A DNA stretch of 64,000 bases from a virus. Location: the IMG/VR virus record IMGVR_UViG_3300046314_000711; one strand, given 5' to 3'. The position numbers and the translations under genes were made by a program. The notes under the pieces were generated by a model, which saw only the letters and a list, made by a program, of their open reading frames with translations, ran no database searches and had not been told where the DNA came from. Of the stretch, positions 27,950 through 63,079 are shown one piece after another; position 1 is the first letter of the stretch; every line of letters starts with the position of its first letter.

Positions 27950-27978
27950 TTGACCAGATTTGAAAAGTGTGTTACATT
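27950..27978 (+). promoter_or_regulatory. sigma70 promoter of tRNA array 1
   Basis: TTGACC-17-TACATT; near-identical to the promoter at 56784. Confidence 0.75.
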
Positions 27979-28094: not shown

Positions 28095-28199
28095 ATGTTT
28101 TCCTCTTCCGTGATTATTAGCAAACATACAATGAGCGAACGCTTTAGCGATCGTTCAGATGATATGTGCGCCCTTGTTCACGTCGGAGTAGAATTCTAA
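28095..28199 (+). CDS. attenuator leader peptide of tRNA array 1 (MFSSSVIISKHTMSERFSDRSDDMCALVHVGVEF)
   Basis: 34-codon ORF between promoter and terminator; codons mirror array 1 tRNAs; contains antiterminator strand. Confidence 0.8.
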   Translation: MFSSSVIISKHTMSERFSDRSDDMCALVHVGVEF

Positions 28200-28227
28200 A
28201 CAAAGAACTTCTCCAGAATGTAGAAAC

Positions 28228-28253
28228 AAGGGCTCCAAATAGGAGCCTTTTTT
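28228..28253 (+). terminator. attenuator terminator, array 1
   Basis: aagggctcc-aaata-ggagccttt plus T tract; 5' arm also pairs with 28170-28178. Confidence 0.9.
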
Positions 28254-28725: not shown

Positions 28726-28797
28726 AGTCTGTAAGTGTTCATAGACGCACATAGCACTGTCACTGCTAAAGAACGGGAGCATTACCCGTACAGACTG
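28726..28797 (+). tRNA. tRNA-Asp(GTC), no encoded CCA
   Basis: tagca-ctGTCac-tgcta; extended flanking stem. Confidence 0.75.
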
Positions 28798-29710
28798 CAG
28801 GCAACCTTAGTTGATGAGAAAATATGCATTCGTGGTTTGGTACTACTGCCCACCGAATTGGGTCATCACTCCGGTAGTACTTTTTACCTTTAATTTCAAT
28901 CCATGCGTTATATTTCGGAAGATAGAAGTCTGGATAATACTTTCCTGGCTTTCCAGTTGGATAAGTGAAAGTAAAGTATGTTGTAGAATTTTTCAGCCAT
29001 TCAATATTGTGTGAATCCAGTAATTTTGCAAATGCAAGTTCAGCGCCTGAGTCCATTTGTTGGTCTTTATATGTTGAGCGATGCACAATCGTAGAATTTG
29101 GTTGAAATCCTCCACCTCTTCGAGTTAATAGATAACATTCATTCGAGCAAGTATTTCGTGTCGTAGTAGCAAACGTTTTATTGCACACTTGACATTGTCT
29201 TACTTTTGAATATGGTCCTAGTATTGTACGTACCGCTGCTTTACCATTTTTCGGGTTACGAGAGTGACAGACCCAGATACCTTCTAGATGTAGTTTATAT
29301 ATTCCACCTGGATTTTTCATTACTCCTGCGCGAATTTTTTGCTTAGTTTCAACTGAATGAACATAATCCCTTGTAGCATTAGTGGCGATTCCTGCACAGG
29401 TGTGACTGCAAAATGTATTATGCCTATTATTATATGATAGTGGAGTAGAACATTGCTTGCATATTGTAGGATCATTAGTGTACTCACTACGTCGAATGCT
29501 AACATTACGCTTGTGAGTAGCTGTAGACTTATCTCGTCCTCTTGCGCCATTTGTGATATTTTTGAGTTTAACTTCTTCGGACACTAGTGAAACATCCGGA
29601 AAAGCAATTTTGAAAGTATCTGTAGTATGGGAGTGAGTTTTCAAGTGAGAATTTGTAAGCTGGTTAAATTGTCTAGTGCAAATTGGGCAGGTAATCATAC
29701 GTAATATCAA
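28766..29710 (-). mobile_element. free-standing homing endonuclease (Zn fingers + PD-(D/E)XK)
   Basis: CPIC...HLKTH, FCSHTC, YYPDFYLP...IEIKG; inserted antisense in tRNA array. Confidence 0.8.
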
Positions 29711-29910: not shown

Positions 29911-29986
29911 GGAGCCAAGGCCAATCAAGTGATGGCGGCTGTTTGAAAAACAGTGCAGGTTGGAGCGTTACCAACTGGCTCTACCA
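29911..29986 (+). tRNA. tRNA-Phe(GAA)
   Basis: gctgt-ttGAAaa-acagt; CCA. Confidence 0.8.
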
Positions 29987-30001
29987 CGTTTTTTAATTTA
30001 A

Positions 30002-30089
30002 GGAAGAATATCTACACAAGGTGTAGCACTGTTTCGAAATCAGTTGGAGTCTGTAAGGGCTTGGGGAGCATTACCTCATTCTTCCGCCA
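30002..30089 (+). tRNA. tRNA-Ser(CGA)
   Basis: ttCGAaa loop, long variable arm, GCCA. Confidence 0.8.
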
Positions 30090-30097
30090 ATAGTCAT

Positions 30098-32595: not shown

Positions 32596-32741
32596 GCCCT
32601 GATAGCAAAGAGGATAATGCACTCGCCTTTTCTGAGAGGATACAGACCTCTCTCCACAGGAGATTCTCACGAGTCTCCTGTCCAGGAGGATAACTCCAAA
32701 AGGTAAGCGAGAGACCGTCCGTTCGAATCGGACTCAGGGCA
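32596..32741 (+). ncRNA. tRNA-Arg-like body with ~70-nt structured insert in anticodon loop
   Basis: gccctga/tcagggc acceptor, GGATA D-loop, ctcgc/gcgag stem, gtccg-ttcgaat-cggac. Confidence 0.75.
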
Positions 32742-32752
32742 CACAAAATTTA

Positions 32753-56310: not shown

Positions 56311-56703
56311 TTGAAAACAATCATAGCAGGCTCACGTGGAATTACTGACTATAATATAGTCCACAAGGCGATATACGAATCGCCTTGGGTAATTACTGAA
56401 GTGGTGTCTGGTGGTGCTAGAGGTGTTGATACACTTGGCGAACAAGCGGCTGCCGCATTCGCCATCCCTGTGAAAGTATTTCCAGCTGCTTGGGCCACAC
56501 ACGGTCGAGCAGCTGGTCCTATTCGCAACCAAGAAATGGCTGAGTACAGTGATGGACTCATCGCAATATGGGACGGAGTAAGTACTGGAACTGCGGATAT
56601 GATCAGACGAGCGGAACGTATGAAGTTACGCGTTCACGTGATCAATCTGTCAACCGTGCCTGTGAAACCGTGGTACGATGATATGGATGAGTTTGGGTTT
56701 TGA
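56311..56703 (+). CDS. SLOG/YspA (DUF2493) family protein
   Basis: IAGSR, VSGGARGVD, AGPIRNQEMA, WDG.S.GT..MI. Confidence 0.88.
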   Translation: MKTIIAGSRGITDYNIVHKAIYESPWVITEVVSGGARGVDTLGEQAAAAFAIPVKVFPAAWATHGRAAGPIRNQEMAEYSDGLIAIWDGVSTGTADMIRRAERMKLRVHVINLSTVPVKPWYDDMDEFGF

Positions 56704-56713
56704 AAAATAACTG

Positions 56714-56892
56714 TTGACCCACTTTTCAAAATGTGTTACATTTAACTTATCGGTTCGCAAGAATGAAAGTTTGAACTAACCTGTTGACCAGATTTCGAAA
56801 ATGTGTTACATTAGACAAATCGGTTGATAAAAAAGATTTTTCTCCTAAACCATGAAAAATCGTTGACCACAAGAAGAGTTTGCATATATACT
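56714..56892 (+). promoter_or_regulatory. tandem sigma70 promoters of tRNA array 2
   Basis: TTGACC-17-TACATT at 56714 and 56784; TTGACC..TATACT at 56863. Confidence 0.75.
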
Positions 56893-56929
56893 TAAAAGAC
56901 TGATTAATTTAACTTAAAGAGAAACTAAA

Positions 56930-57037
56930 ATGAACGCCGTATTACTGAATCAACAACCGCTCTGTGCGCAACCGAATTATTGGTTGCAGCAAGCCTTTGT
57001 GCATTCGTTTTCCGCTAGTTCTGTAGAGACTCTCTAA
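56930..57037 (+). CDS. attenuator leader peptide of tRNA array 2 (MNAVLLNQQPLCAQPNYWLQQAFVHSFSASSVETL)
   Basis: 35-codon ORF with AAAGAG RBS; codons mirror array 2 tRNAs; contains antiterminator strand. Confidence 0.8.
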   Translation: MNAVLLNQQPLCAQPNYWLQQAFVHSFSASSVETL

Positions 57038-57065
57038 TAGAATAAAAAGCAAAAACAAATTTCAC

Positions 57066-57093
57066 AAGGGCTCCCTACAAGGAGCCCTTTTTT
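57066..57093 (+). terminator. attenuator terminator, array 2
   Basis: aagggctcc-ctacaa-ggagccctt plus T tract; 5' arm also pairs with 56992-57001. Confidence 0.9.
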
Positions 57094-57120
57094 ATTGAGC
57101 GATCGTGCACAATAAAGTGA

Positions 57121-57133
57121 TGTTCATTAAAAA
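57121..57133 (+). promoter_or_regulatory. boxA-like site
   Basis: tgttcattaaaaa. Confidence 0.6.
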
Positions 57134-57152
57134 TTAAAGAATATTGTAGTGC

Positions 57153-57225
57153 AGAGTGTTGGTGTAATTGGCAACATACAGAATTCCAAATTCTGCTGAT
57201 TTCAGTTCGAATCTGAAGCGCTCTG
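57153..57225 (+). tRNA. tRNA-Trp(CCA)
   Basis: cagaa-ttCCAaa-ttctg; canonical T arm. Confidence 0.85.
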
Positions 57226-57260
57226 CACTGCAATATTTGCGAAGAAATAGTTTTCTTTGT

Positions 57261-57344
57261 CCGTGTATAGGCTAGCCTGGTCAAGTCACTCGTTTTGGGG
57301 GCGAGAGTAGTAATACATCGCTGGTTCGAATCCAGCTACACGGA
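57261..57344 (+). tRNA. tRNA-Pro(TGG), long variable region
   Basis: ctcgt-ttTGGgg-gcgag; C1-G72, A73. Confidence 0.8.
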
Positions 57345-57360
57345 CAAAGAAAATTAATAT

Positions 57361-57445
57361 GGGGTGTTATACCGTTAAAGAGACGGTCCGGATTGTAAAC
57401 CCGGCGCTTTAAGCTCAGATGGAGCATTACCATCACACCCCACCA
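57361..57445 (+). tRNA. tRNA-Tyr(GTA)
   Basis: ttGTAaa loop, variable arm, CCA. Confidence 0.82.
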
Positions 57446-57463
57446 AAAATTAGTAATCTGTGC

Positions 57464-57538
57464 TGTGGTAGAGGCGTCTTGGTGACAACCGCGGAACTGT
57501 TAATTCCGATTAGCGTGTATCGTTCACACGTACCACAG
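57464..57538 (+). tRNA. tRNA-Asn(GTT)
   Basis: cggaa-ctGTTaa-ttccg; G73. Confidence 0.75.
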
Positions 57539-57563
57539 CACAGATTACTTAATAAAGCATTGC

Positions 57564-57645
57564 TGGCATATAGCTCGGTTGGTAGAGCGCTCAGTCTGGA
57601 CCTGAGAGACGCACATAAGTCGTATACATAGGTTTGAATGCTACT
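57564..57645 (+). pseudogene. degenerate tRNA (possibly Gln CTG)
   Basis: Good D arm and ctcag/ctgag stem around tCTGgac; T arm and acceptor 3' strand decayed. Confidence 0.5.
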
Positions 57646-57663
57646 AACGAAGTCAGTATTTTT

Positions 57664-57738
57664 CTCGGTAAAGCGTTGATGGCGTCGCACGTGTTTTGGG
57701 AACATGAGGGGAAGTTTCGAGCACTTCTACCGAGACCA
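57664..57738 (+). tRNA. tRNA-Pro(TGG)
   Basis: cgtgt-ttTGGga-acatg; CCA. Confidence 0.8.
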
Positions 57739-57746
57739 AGTTTTAT

Positions 57747-57818
57747 GGGGGCAGCAGTGGGCTGCGGTTCTGCCTTGCAAGTAGAATGTCTAGTGGGATT
57801 CGATTTCCCCGGCCTCCA
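57747..57818 (+). tRNA. tRNA-Ala(TGC)
   Basis: tctgc-ctTGCaa-gtaga; G3:U70. Confidence 0.7.
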
Positions 57819-57871
57819 CACATTTTCGGATAGCACCTTGCTATCTCTCAATCCACTGAATAGGTCGGTGG

Positions 57872-58150
57872 CGTGTTAATCGACTCTGCACACGCAGGGT
57901 TTTCAGTATCTACGATAAAGGTACGGCTAAGTTGTAATGCTAAAGAATTTATGCGCGATATGTCGAAAAGTGAGACAACTGCCTTTGACGCAGTACCAAA
58001 GAAGGGGCAGTACCTTCATCGCGTTCCAACTTATAGGAGATACTGTGAAAGCATTTGGTTCTAAACGAGCATACCACGACTGCCGAGTTTATCGTGCAGG
58101 ACGTGGTAAAAAGATCCTCTTCACCACTGGTGTCAAGAGTCGCAAACACG
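57872..58150 (+). ncRNA. unknown ~280-nt structured RNA
   Basis: Nested helices cgtgtt/aacacg, cgactct/agagtcg, cagtatct/agatactg, aaggtac/gtacctt. Confidence 0.55.
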
Positions 58151-58198
58151 GTCGCAAGACTGTAATATTGCAAGATGGTGAGAATTGATAGAGATTGC

Positions 58199-58278
58199 GC
58201 CCCTGTTGACAAATTGGAAAAGTCGTCTTTTTTAGAAAAAGAAATATTTTGCAGGTTCGAAGCCTGTCGGGGGCACCA
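58199..58278 (+). tRNA. tRNA-Leu(TAG)
   Basis: tcttt-ttTAGaa-aaaga; CCA. Confidence 0.8.
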
Positions 58279-58299
58279 AGTTTACAAGGAGATCGCAAT

Positions 58300-58470
58300 A
58301 TGAGCAAAAACGCAAAAAAGATCGCAGTACTAGAATCACGTATTGCAGAGTTGGAAGCAGAAATGAAGATGTCACTTCAAAGGAAGTTGTCTGGTAAGGT
58401 GGCATTTGATGTACCTGGCTGTCTTCGCAAGATTGCCGATCTGCGTAAAGATGTCAGCAACCTGAAGTGA
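58300..58470 (+). CDS. small coiled-coil protein in tRNA array
   Basis: AAGGAG RBS, 56 aa. Confidence 0.65.
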   Translation: MSKNAKKIAVLESRIAELEAEMKMSLQRKLSGKVAFDVPGCLRKIADLRKDVSNLK

Positions 58471-58500
58471 GAGTGCGATGCCATCATAATGATGGCACTA

Positions 58501-58684
58501 TTTTATGTCGTAGATTAGTGGAACCTGGAAAGCATCCGTACAAATGTGGACTGGAGGGCGCAACGAGTTGTTTGAAGCTAGTGGAGTGGCCACAAAGCCA
58601 GCAGAATCAATCTTCGTATGCTTAAATCGCTGTTCTTGGGTGAACGGAGACACTGTGTTGTGTAATGGTGCAGTCGACATAAAA
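58501..58684 (+). ncRNA. unknown ~185-nt RNA
   Basis: ttttatgtcg/cgacataaaa closing stem; no credible ORF. Confidence 0.45.
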
Positions 58685-58697
58685 TAGTTATAATTTT

Positions 58698-58780
58698 GCG
58701 AGTGTGGTGGAACGGGATACACTACTGTCTTAAACGCAGTCGCCCGTAAGGGATTGAGGGTTCGAGTCCCTCCACTCGCA
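58698..58780 (+). tRNA. tRNA-Leu(TAA)
   Basis: actgt-ctTAAac-gcagt, long variable arm. Confidence 0.9.
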
Positions 58781-58801
58781 CACATTTTTAGACTTTATTG
58801 A

Positions 58802-58885
58802 GTAGGCGTGGCAGAGCGGTCGAATGCGCGGGATTGCAATCCCCGATCCTTAAAGGACACGTCAGTTCAAATCTGACCGCCTACT
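58802..58885 (+). tRNA. tRNA-Cys(GCA), long variable arm
   Basis: ttGCAat loop; U73. Confidence 0.82.
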
Positions 58886-58902
58886 CAATAAAGTTTTTAT
58901 AT

Positions 58903-58979
58903 GCCCCCGTACGCTAAGAGGTAGTGCGACTGGACTTAAAATTTAGTGGCTGGGAGTTCGAATCTCCACTTCTTCACCA
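58903..58979 (+). pseudogene. chimeric tRNA-Leu(TAA)
   Basis: ctTAAaa loop and T arm present, but acceptor strands do not pair. Confidence 0.6.
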
Positions 58980-59010
58980 TTTATAAATAACAAACTGTTA
59001 ATAAAGTACG

Positions 59011-59628
59011 ATGAAACTCCAACATATTCTTGATGAAATGGCGTACAAAACCACTACACAACATCCTGAGTTTCCTCAGGAGCAAGTGGATGGATTTGCA
59101 AAATGGATACAAGATGGTAGCGTTGCTCATCCTGTCGAAGGCGGTAAATTCAAAGTCCTGCAAAAAGAATTCGCTTTCGCATTGTTTCGTGCTAGAGATG
59201 AAGCATTGTTGGGGTGGGTTTTGCTTGATGCTGAGAAAACTGAATATGGAATATCTGCATATCCTCTAAAAAACATCCAGATTCTACCAAAGTATCGTAA
59301 CACTGCAGCAATTGTTGTGCTGATAAACGCGATGCGGCTGATACTCAATCGCCCCGTGTTGATAGATAATCCAATATTTTCCGGTGGACAATCACTACTA
59401 AAAGCAATTATCGCTCGACCAGACACGATGCCTCGAGTTAAAACGATTAATAAACGCACAGGTGAAGTTAAACAATATACTGATATGGATTTAGTATATG
59501 ACGATACGATAGCAGTATTACTAGAACAACTCCATTGGAAACTAACTCATTGTGATATTCTCCCAGGAGGATATAGTCGAGACATTGTGCTTGAGTTTTT
59601 CTCAACCTACACTACTGACTTGATATAG
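59011..59628 (+). CDS. late protein, possible GNAT-like fold
   Basis: TATAAATA at 58982; MKLQHILDE leader; IQILPKYRN. Confidence 0.6.
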   Translation: MKLQHILDEMAYKTTTQHPEFPQEQVDGFAKWIQDGSVAHPVEGGKFKVLQKEFAFALFRARDEALLGWVLLDAEKTEYGISAYPLKNIQILPKYRNTAAIVVLINAMRLILNRPVLIDNPIFSGGQSLLKAIIARPDTMPRVKTINKRTGEVKQYTDMDLVYDDTIAVLLEQLHWKLTHCDILPGGYSRDIVLEFFSTYTTDLI

Positions 59629-61861: not shown

Positions 61862-62064
61862 TGCTAACTTATCCTGAACTTGCTGCACTAGGCTTTTGTC
61901 CAGTGAAGAACTACGGGTGGATGAAAGCTTTCCCTCGGGGCTTCCGTCTTCCGCTATCCTGCCCAGCAGATCTATACAAAAGGCTCCCGCTGCAGATCCA
62001 GATTTTCTACGACTCTCCTATCGTTGATGGTAAGCGAGCATTAAAACGCCAACTAACCTGTTGA
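61861..62064 (+). CDS. hypothetical protein
   Basis: 67 aa ORF, GTG start. Confidence 0.35.
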   Translation: MLTYPELAALGFCPVKNYGWMKAFPRGFRLPLSCPADLYKRLPLQIQIFYDSPIVDGKRALKRQLTC

Positions 62065-62236
62065 CCTAAACTCAAACTGGCGATATAATGCTCCCTGTGT
62101 CTGGGAAATATCGCTGGTAAATAAAAGACTTGTAAATATTTTCAAATATCTGTTGACTTTAATAGAAAACGGTATATAATAGACCCTAATGCAGTGATCG
62201 AGCTGCTAAACAGAGTTCTTTAAAAAGTTGCTTGTT

Positions 62237-62330
62237 AGCGTCGTAATCTGGGATACCATGCTCGCCTGGTAAGAGTGTGAGGTAGTGGTCGCCAGCCACA
62301 ATAGATGAGGTTCGACTCCTCCACGACGCT
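62237..62330 (+). ncRNA. tRNA-like RNA (cassette 1)
   Basis: gcgtcgt/acgacgc stem, gagg-ttcgact-cctc T arm, D-like hairpin. Confidence 0.6.
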
Positions 62331-62825
62331 AATAAGCAACTTTTTAAAAGATTCTGTTGACCTTAAAAGATTTTAGGGGATAATAGACGTACAGATAGTG
62401 ATCGCACTACTAATAATAGAGTTCTTTAAAAAGTTAGTTTGTTGTGCTGAAAGGTCCACCCACTGTCTTGTGGGGAGAAGGTAATAAGAAAGTTATCAGA
62501 TCCGTTTGATAGCAGAAATAACTTTAACAAACGAAACTTTTTAAAAGATTCTGTTGACCCTAGCCAAAATTGGGGTATAATGGAGACTAAGCAGTGATCG
62601 AGCTGCTTGATAGAGTTCTTTAAAAAGTTAGTGAAACCGCTGTTCATAGTGACGCCAGCTGAGATGCTGGGTAGCGCCAAAAAAGAACGAACAGTGGGAT
62701 GACTTGGATCATACCAAGCGTATCACAAAACTTTTTAAAAGATTCTGTTGACACATACTGAAAAGTGTGTGATAATAGACCCTAAGGCAGTTAAGACTGA
62801 TCACAGTAAACTGCAAAGTTCATTA

Positions 62826-63079
62826 AAAATCTAAAGTTACGAAACAGTAGGATTAGTAGTGTCCATCTGATAATGAGTGGCAAATGGTTCGAAGTGCACC
62901 ACCCGCGCAGTAATTGCCAGGGGAAGTGAATACGGGAAGCCATACGGGAAGTGTAAGTCAGTCCAGATACTTGTAAATGCAGGAGGTCTAAAGACCTGAG
63001 CGACCGCAGCAATGTGGGAGAGATACTGGGACCGTTTGAAGCCTTTAGTGTAATAACACATTCGTAACTAATAGATTTT
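62826..63079 (+). ncRNA. unknown ~250-nt RNA (cassette 4)
   Basis: aaaatcta..gttacgaa / ttcgtaac..tagatttt closing stem. Confidence 0.55.

Follow-up and report, generated by a model that had tools for sequence, protein, structure and literature searches.

The intergenic stretch that follows the YAcAr/SLOG gene of an uncultured jumbo myovirus (positions 56704-57152) holds an element, here termed leader 2, that is probably a ribosome-mediated transcription attenuator of the leader-peptide type, with control codons matched to the tRNA genes of the array that it gates (array 2). All positions refer to the window, i.e., the whole stretch of 64,000 nucleotides of viral DNA that was analyzed. Leader 2 couples a very short ORF, whose codons call for the amino acids carried by the array tRNAs, to a transcriptional stop that can be switched, so the tRNA block is probably transcribed only when these codons are read slowly. 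An attenuator had been proposed for this locus in an earlier sequence-only reading, and our analysis supports this interpretation; the step from ribosome stalling to readthrough is inferred from structure and by analogy with known leaders, in the absence of expression data. Attenuation by leader peptides has been textbook knowledge for fifty years and is known for amino acid biosynthesis and for a synthetase operon; to our knowledge, it is not known for tRNA genes, which are regarded as promoter-controlled. In full-text searches of the published literature, neither tRNA genes nor phage tRNA arrays were found to be described as controlled by a leader peptide.

The tail sheath of the window phage shares about 41% identity with its counterparts in Xanthomonas phage XacN1 and in Stenotrophomonas phage CM1, and megablast searches found no nucleotide match to the locus among GenBank phages. 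Homologs of leader 2 are present, ahead of an array of the same kind, in five other metagenomic phages (L016, L018, L020, L023, and L024; L020 is identical to L021 and L024 to L025, and each pair was counted once), and those of a second element, leader 1, in three (G001, L012, and L014). With the window included, the comparison rests on six distinct sequences of leader 2 and four of leader 1, which come from different metagenomes. The leader 2 relatives were found through neighboring proteins; a 205-amino-acid protein encoded downstream of the locus led to L016 via a protein database search and had no match in viral contigs. Exact-pattern scans of the viral contigs for leader 2 motifs gave no match and recovered one leader 1 relative only, a pattern scan of metagenomes returned leader 1 loci and no leader 2, and the viral-contig relatives of the upstream YAcAr/SLOG protein (L009-L011) contain no tRNAs. 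The leader 2 relatives are vertical kin and not independent replicates; they demonstrate purifying selection, not independent origin. Since the distant jumbo relatives XacN1 and CM1 have no short ORF with a terminator ahead of their tRNA clusters (the single terminator of XacN1 is located within one tRNA cluster), the device is not general to that wider jumbo group.

The anatomy of leader 2 is as follows; the numbered regions form three mutually exclusive helices (1:2, 2:3, and 3:4) between positions 56714 and 57135.

56714-56742, plus strand, promoter P1 (TTGACC, 17 nt, TACATT, TG-extended -10); leader 1 is headed by the same promoter type (27950-27978)
56784-56812, plus strand, promoter P2 (TTGACC-17-TACATT, extended -10), near-identical to the leader 1 promoter
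56863-56892, plus strand, promoter P3 (TTGACC, 18 nt, TATACT), with a predicted transcript start about 30 nt before the ATG
56917-56922, plus strand, weak Shine-Dalgarno-like motif AAGAGA, 8-11 nt before the ATG
56930-57037, plus strand, leader ORF 2, ATG start, 35 codons, closed by tandem in-frame stops (TAA followed by TAG), with codons 2-22 as the sensing segment
56947-56961, plus strand, region 1 (codons 6-11), 5' strand of the anti-antiterminator stem
56965-56991, plus strand, apical hairpin of 1:2, which includes the previously reported hairpin 56968-56987; one pair varies between A-U, G-U, and G-C
56992-57006, plus strand, region 2, alternative partner of region 1 or, through 56992-57001, of region 3
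57063-57072, plus strand, region 3, 3' strand of the antiterminator, with a 7-nt overlap with the 5' arm of the terminator
57066-57093, plus strand, intrinsic terminator with a 9-bp stem (57066-57089) containing six G-C pairs, a 6-nt loop, and a U-tract
57100-57135, plus strand, CGATCG motif and boxA-like GTTCATTAAAAATT, the boxA-like site lying at 57122-57135

The tandem promoters, the 35-codon ORF, the hairpin, the terminator, and the boxA-like site of the sequence-only reading were thus all recovered at, or within a few bases of, the positions it gave. All three promoters are of the sigma70 type. Translation of the leader ORF is inferred: the 35-codon ATG ORF is kept in six phages, the upstream AAGAG/GAGA is only a weak Shine-Dalgarno-like motif, its GAGA is kept in six of the six leader 2 homologs, and there are no translation data. 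The spacer between stop codon and terminator is A-rich and 29 nt long in both leaders (57038-57062 and 28200-28227).

The antiterminator consists of AGCCTTTGTG (56992-57001) paired with CACAAGGGCT (57063-57072) over 10 bp, including one G-U, and intrudes into the 5' arm of the terminator, as had been noticed previously. The anti-antiterminator 1:2 pairs 56947-56961 with 56992-57006 and shares region 2 with 2:3. Three features expected of an attenuator are in place: an intrinsic terminator before the first gene (about 60 nt upstream of the tRNA-Trp gene), an antiterminator that is incompatible with this terminator, and an anti-antiterminator in overlap with the control codons. Folding of the competing states, which had been suggested as a check, gave alternative pairings and energies in the classical order. 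Once region 2 has been made, the 1:2 hairpin is the minimum free energy structure (-21.7 kcal/mol); with region 3 out, the 2:3 conformer is more stable than 1:2 by 7.6 kcal/mol; and in the full RNA the conformer that combines 1:2 with the 3:4 terminator wins, with -49.6 kcal/mol versus -44.2 kcal/mol when region 1 is masked. Leader 1 folds in the same energy order and has a longer antiterminator. When a ribosome mask of 30 nt was moved along the leader, 2:3 could form with the A site at codons 2-18 and was lost only with the A site at codons 19-29 or so, where the ribosome lies over region 2. Before the 3' arm of the terminator is made, 2:3 is favored at equilibrium even without a ribosome; default termination, which we infer, must therefore rest on kinetic trapping of 1:2. 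Default termination in the trp attenuator likewise depends on kinetic trapping of 1:2. A further hairpin in the middle of the element (57007-57056) is given no role because it is not conserved in the alignment.

Array 2 follows the boxA-like site and consists of the following elements.

57153-58976, plus strand, tRNA array 2, beginning with the Trp gene at 57153
57153, plus strand, tRNA-Trp, default ARAGORN and Rfam
57261, plus strand, tRNA with UGG (Pro) anticodon and a long variable arm, default ARAGORN and Rfam
57361, plus strand, tRNA-Tyr, ARAGORN at 85% thresholds only
57464, plus strand, tRNA-Asn, ARAGORN at 85% thresholds only
57564-57623, plus strand, degenerate element with a UGG loop (TCTGGAC)
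57664, plus strand, tRNA-Pro, one of the two UGG genes, default ARAGORN and Rfam
57747, plus strand, tRNA-Ala, ARAGORN at 85% thresholds only
57953-58028, plus strand, tRNA-Gln(UUG), intact cloverleaf
58199, plus strand, tRNA-Leu(UAG), default ARAGORN and Rfam
58698, plus strand, tRNA-Leu(UAA), default ARAGORN and Rfam
58802, plus strand, tRNA-Cys, default ARAGORN and Rfam
58918-58976, plus strand, tRNA-like element that lacks a D arm and has an anticodon-type loop with UAA; its Rfam tRNA score of 28.7 bits is just below threshold

The genes of the previously described order W, P, Y, N, A, L, C were all found. Default ARAGORN and Rfam detect Trp, the two UGG (Pro) genes, both Leu genes, and Cys; they miss Tyr, Asn, and Ala because the T-loops of these genes are non-canonical. 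In L016, L020, and L024, default settings suffice for W, Y, N, P, C, and L, so that Tyr and Asn are default calls in relatives and relaxed-threshold calls in the window; Ala is called at the relaxed threshold only, both in the window and in L016. As a caveat, the Tyr, Asn, Ala, and Gln genes of the window all have non-canonical T-loops and were detected only with relaxed settings. The sequence-only reading had cautioned that the Gln gene looks degenerate. A degenerate element indeed exists at 57564-57623; its assignment to Gln was rejected, as its loop TCTGGAC carries a UGG anticodon and the intact counterparts of the element in L016 and L024 were assigned to Pro. An intact tRNA-Gln, for which a search in relatives had been advised, is present in the window itself (57953-58028) as well as in L016, L018, and L024, where it is supported by relaxed calls and by an alignment in which 8 of the 20 cloverleaf pairs are compensatory. 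The caveat on Gln accordingly falls away, and the called genes together with this tRNA-Gln(UUG) indicate that array 2 serves W, P, Y, N, Q, A, L, and C. From the terminator to where array 2 ends, near 58976, no promoter-like site was seen on the plus strand.

Several peculiarities of these genes deserve mention. Many tRNAs of both arrays have the T-loops AGCATTA, AGCGTTA, or GGCAGTA in place of TTCGAAT and escape ARAGORN and Rfam at default settings, and their cloverleaves still covary (e.g., window positions 57361-57445, 57953-58028, 29911-29987, and about 30003-30090, and the arrays of L016 and L024). Bodies of type II with a long variable arm carry a Pro (UGG) anticodon at 57261-57345 and a Cys (GCA) anticodon at 58802-58886, their charging not being established; the Cys homolog of L016 (5414-5491) has no long variable arm. 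The Asn tRNA is enclosed by a perfect inverted repeat of 17 bp (TAATCTGTGCTGTGGTA; 57454-57549) that lengthens the acceptor stem, and no CCA is encoded.

A second array, array 1, is preceded by a leader of the same architecture.

28095-28199, plus strand, leader 1 ORF, in front of array 1, a paralog of leader ORF 2
28228-28253, plus strand, terminator of leader 1

The window calls assign K, I, E, D, F, V, S, H, M, T, and R to array 1. Array 1 of G001 serves exactly the same set of 11 amino acids, and most of its genes are canonical calls; the cloverleaf of the Phe(GAA) gene of array 1 is supported by compensatory changes in 12 of 21 pairs. Taken together, the two arrays serve 19 amino acids, and Gly is found in neither. 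Unlike array 2, array 1 has internal promoter-like sites. The near-identity of the two terminators that had been pointed out holds, their 5' arms being identical. The two leaders had also been considered unrelated and hence an independent replication within one genome, a view that cannot be maintained: the promoter, region 2, the terminator arm, and the boxA-like site align, and region 2 of both peptides is encoded by A-L/F-V-H codons, which identifies the leaders as duplicates rather than as independent inventions. Judged from their sequences, leaders 1 and 2 are paralogs that arose by duplication, and since their flanks align but their sensing codons do not, the sensing segment was re-coded to suit each array.

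The two amino acid sets were determined independently. It had been claimed that residues 2-22 of leader 2 use the eight amino acids of array 2 apart from one Val and include all eight, and this is the case for 20 of the 21 residues. The match of leader 1 to array 1 is complete, with 23 of 23 residues (positions 2-24) in the set of 11 and all 11 members represented. The control codons of both leaders hence correspond to the regulated tRNAs, as required of such a device. With background frequencies taken from the 32 long frames of the window (which sum to 0.359 for the set of array 2 and 0.576 for that of array 1), binomial tests against the window's own proteome gave P values of 1.7e-8 for leader 2 and 3e-6 for leader 1. 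Fisher's test on the cross table of the sensing segments ([23, 0], [1, 20]) gave P = 1.2e-11, and P = 3e-6 for the whole peptides. Among 52,570 stop-free frames of 21 residues on both strands of the window, leader 2 alone reaches 20 residues of its set. Nearly all sensing codons of both leaders are readable by the anticodons of the array behind them. The exceptions in leader 2 are the Val codon GTA, which the array cannot read, and CTC, which needs a Leu tRNA with a GAG anticodon; this tRNA was not found in the window and occurs in relatives.

Most of the sensed amino acids are represented by one to three codons each, some by a single one, and there are no codon runs; the response to partial depletion is therefore uncertain. 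The absence of runs also fits an explanation in which the leader, as a switch coupled to translation, reports on the overall capacity for elongation or on the stage of infection (slowed ribosomes, (p)ppGpp, or host shut-off) rather than on the supply of particular tRNAs, or in which the response has the opposite sign and efficient translation leads to readthrough, the roster being no more than an average decoding sample. Since 2:3 is thermodynamically favored whenever region 2 is uncovered, the result of such a switch could depend on timing instead of on one particular stall. An average sample, however, would not divide 19 amino acids between two leaders in the way in which they are divided between the two arrays (Fisher P 1e-11), nor would it preserve this split through whole-codon replacements. 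In both leaders, moreover, 29 nt separate the stop codon from the terminator stem, a distance at which a ribosome that terminates there could not occlude the terminator. We therefore regard this alternative as unlikely and retain the codon-matched attenuator as the preferred reading; the sign of its response remains an inference.

The sequences of the relatives reveal what is kept in the attenuator. All of them retain the length of the ORF, the stop 29 nt before the terminator, the terminator itself, and the boxA-like site. The terminator is invariant across the six phages except for one change from C-G to U-G, and 2:3 keeps 10 pairs in five of the six phages and nine in L023, through wobble-compatible C-G/U-G swaps; one of these changes, from GCC-TTT to GCT-CTT, replaces Phe by Leu and leaves the 2:3 pairing intact. 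Within codons 2-22 of leader 2, the variable columns number 6, 7, and 13 at codon positions 1, 2, and 3, respectively, and codons 7-18 encode nearly invariant amino acids with changes mostly at third positions. Residue changes in the center mostly remain within the set, as at codon 5 (L/N/Q/Y), codon 8 (Q/L/P), and codon 13 (A/L), those at codons 5 and 8 being whole-codon swaps. Out-of-set residues in the leader 2 relatives are found mainly at the edges (T2, V4, F19 in one relative, and R20/R21), in addition to M6 in one relative, and in total 8 of the 14 variant states of codons 2-22 fall into the set, which is a weak enrichment only. For leader 1, all eight of the eight variant states belong to its set, among them F/S/T and swaps of two or three bases such as D/T and T/E.

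These data also bear on a simpler explanation, in which an ordinary leaky terminator or insulator follows strong early promoters and the small ORF is fortuitous or encodes a protein with a function of its own. Short ORFs are common in this DNA (95 of at least 20 amino acids in 5.5 kb), the Shine-Dalgarno motif is weak, and other terminator-like hairpins occur in the region, all of which would suit it. Such an arrangement would not account for an extreme match in composition that is found twice, for an ORF segment of 10 bp that is complementary to the 5' arm of the terminator and is kept in six phages, or for the conservation of ORF length, frame, and stop-to-terminator spacing; neither would it account for sensing segments that differ between paralogs with conserved flanks. 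We consider it very unlikely.

Among known systems, the ilvGMEDA (Ile/Leu/Val) and thr (Thr/Ile) leaders resemble the phage leaders most in design: they possess a short leader ORF with scattered control codons for several amino acids, 1:2, 2:3, and 3:4 hairpins, an intrinsic terminator, and a host sigma70 promoter. Their targets are biosynthetic enzymes and not tRNA genes, and they sense two or three amino acids, whereas leader 2 would sense eight and leader 1 would sense 11, without codon runs. The phage leaders differ from them furthermore in being phage-borne, in a leader ORF that extends across region 2 and stops 29 nt short of the terminator, in the boxA-like site that follows, and in their paired, complementary rosters. 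The single-amino-acid leaders trpL, hisL, leuL, and pheL belong to the same mechanism class; leader 2 lacks the run of one codon, shares no sequence kinship with them, and has a different target. A weak match to the Rfam family Phe_leader (RF01859), covering the middle hairpin and the terminator (56976-57095), reached 32.9 bits (E = 0.005); this is below the gathering score of 55, and the match indicates a resemblance in architecture, not membership. The pheST attenuator with its pheM leader is akin to the phage leaders in that it controls a component of the translation apparatus and responds to charged tRNA, but it senses one amino acid and controls a synthetase, whereas the tRNAs produced by the phage arrays are themselves the sensed quantity.

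T-box riboswitches likewise report tRNA status through a choice between terminator and antiterminator; unlike the proposed phage leader, a T-box RNA binds one uncharged tRNA directly and without translation. Given that the controlled genes are tRNAs and that T-box leaders are established as direct sensors of tRNA, leader 2 could in principle act as an RNA that recognizes tRNA or a protein directly, by T-box-like or protein-mediated attenuation, with its ORF left untranslated. A search of 56700-59100 at E values up to 10 gave no match to the T-box family (RF00230) and, save for the weak Phe leader, none to any other cis-regulatory family. One RNA cannot offer specifiers for eight tRNAs, and the third-position bias together with the in-set codon swaps point to decoding. 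This possibility is the least credible of those considered, and the codon-matched attenuator remains the explanation that we favor.

In the mechanism that we propose, host RNA polymerase would start at the three strong tandem promoters and transcribe the 35-codon leader, whose codons 2-22 would serve as a roster of the amino acids carried by the downstream tRNAs (W, P, Y, N, Q, A, L, and C). If decoding is fast, the ribosome would cover region 2, or 1:2 would re-form behind it; the 3:4 terminator would then fold and transcription would stop about 60 nt before the first tRNA gene. If any of the charged tRNAs is scarce, the ribosome would be expected to stall with its A site at about codons 4-18, leaving region 1 masked and region 2 free, so that the 10-bp 2:3 antiterminator could form and the polymerase would read on. 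Having passed the boxA-like site, where it would probably undergo a Nus-type anti-Rho modification, the polymerase would enter the untranslated array, and the newly made tRNAs would speed up translation of the leader and thereby close a negative feedback loop. Leader 1 may act on array 1 in the same way, with the remaining 11 amino acids as its roster.

The boxA-like site is conserved after both terminators as GTTCATTAAAAATT or GATCATTAAAAATT, and as GTTCTTTAACAC in L016; binding data are not available. E. coli boxA, which we take to be GCTCTTTAACAA, is resembled by GTTCATTAAAAA and by the L016 variant, and the match amounts to 9-10 of 12 positions of this presumed consensus, again without Nus binding data. 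The site would fit a Nus-type anti-Rho modification of untranslated operons, which is probably its role, a function that we infer. In the boxB-boxA elements of rrn operons (NusB/S10), a boxA similarly precedes an operon of untranslated RNA; the phage site differs from them in lying downstream of an attenuator. The module of GATC and a boxA-like site that comes after the terminators of both leaders is also found after the promoters of ncRNA cassettes at 62.1-62.8 kb. These repeated cassettes (62060-62830) consist of a promoter, a hairpin with GATC, boxA-like GTTCTTTAAAAA, and, as cargo, an unrelated structured RNA.

What triggers the switch physiologically is inferred, and we hold it with less confidence than the codon-matched attenuator itself. 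The two attenuators might constitute a tRNA-supply homeostat that audits the charged tRNAs of the host for 19 amino acids by means of two rosters and turns on the matching block of the phage's own, structurally unusual tRNAs only when a species is missing, e.g., after an anticodon-nuclease defense of the host or phage-induced decay of host tRNAs. We put this forward as a tentative proposal that may well prove wrong; if true, the arrays would be an inducible counter-defense and the first tRNA genes regulated by the decoding that they provide. The sensed quantity (the decoding of codons) would coincide with the regulated product (the decoding tRNAs), resulting in the shortest possible feedback loop. 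Such control would explain how tRNA-rich jumbo phages dose a near-complete set of tRNAs, and it ties in with current work on tRNA-targeting immunity and on the tRNA counter-measures of phages. The leaders would further represent compact natural sensors for the availability of eight or 11 tRNA species, and the division of 19 amino acids over two paralogous, re-coded leaders offers a rare natural experiment on the evolution of attenuator specificity.

No third leader matched to Gly was seen when the region around the tRNA-Gly(UCC) gene of L016 (11700-13280) was looked at; this gene is located some 9.7 kb downstream of leader 2 and is preceded by ncRNA cassettes and by a small ORF that looks membrane-like. 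The tRNA-Thr(UGU) gene of the window (32596-32742) has an insert of 73 nt in its anticodon loop that is conserved in L006 (6280-6427) and was detected with the intron mode of ARAGORN. By inspection, without a family library, the minus strand of array 1 (28766-29710) contains an HNH-like ORF of 314 amino acids rich in Cys and His, and array 2 of a relative (L016, 4034-4709) contains a GIY-YIG-like ORF. Suppressor-type tRNAs are found in relatives, with a UUA anticodon in L024 (9737-9828) and CM1 (L030) and with a CUA anticodon in XacN1 (L029) and CM1.
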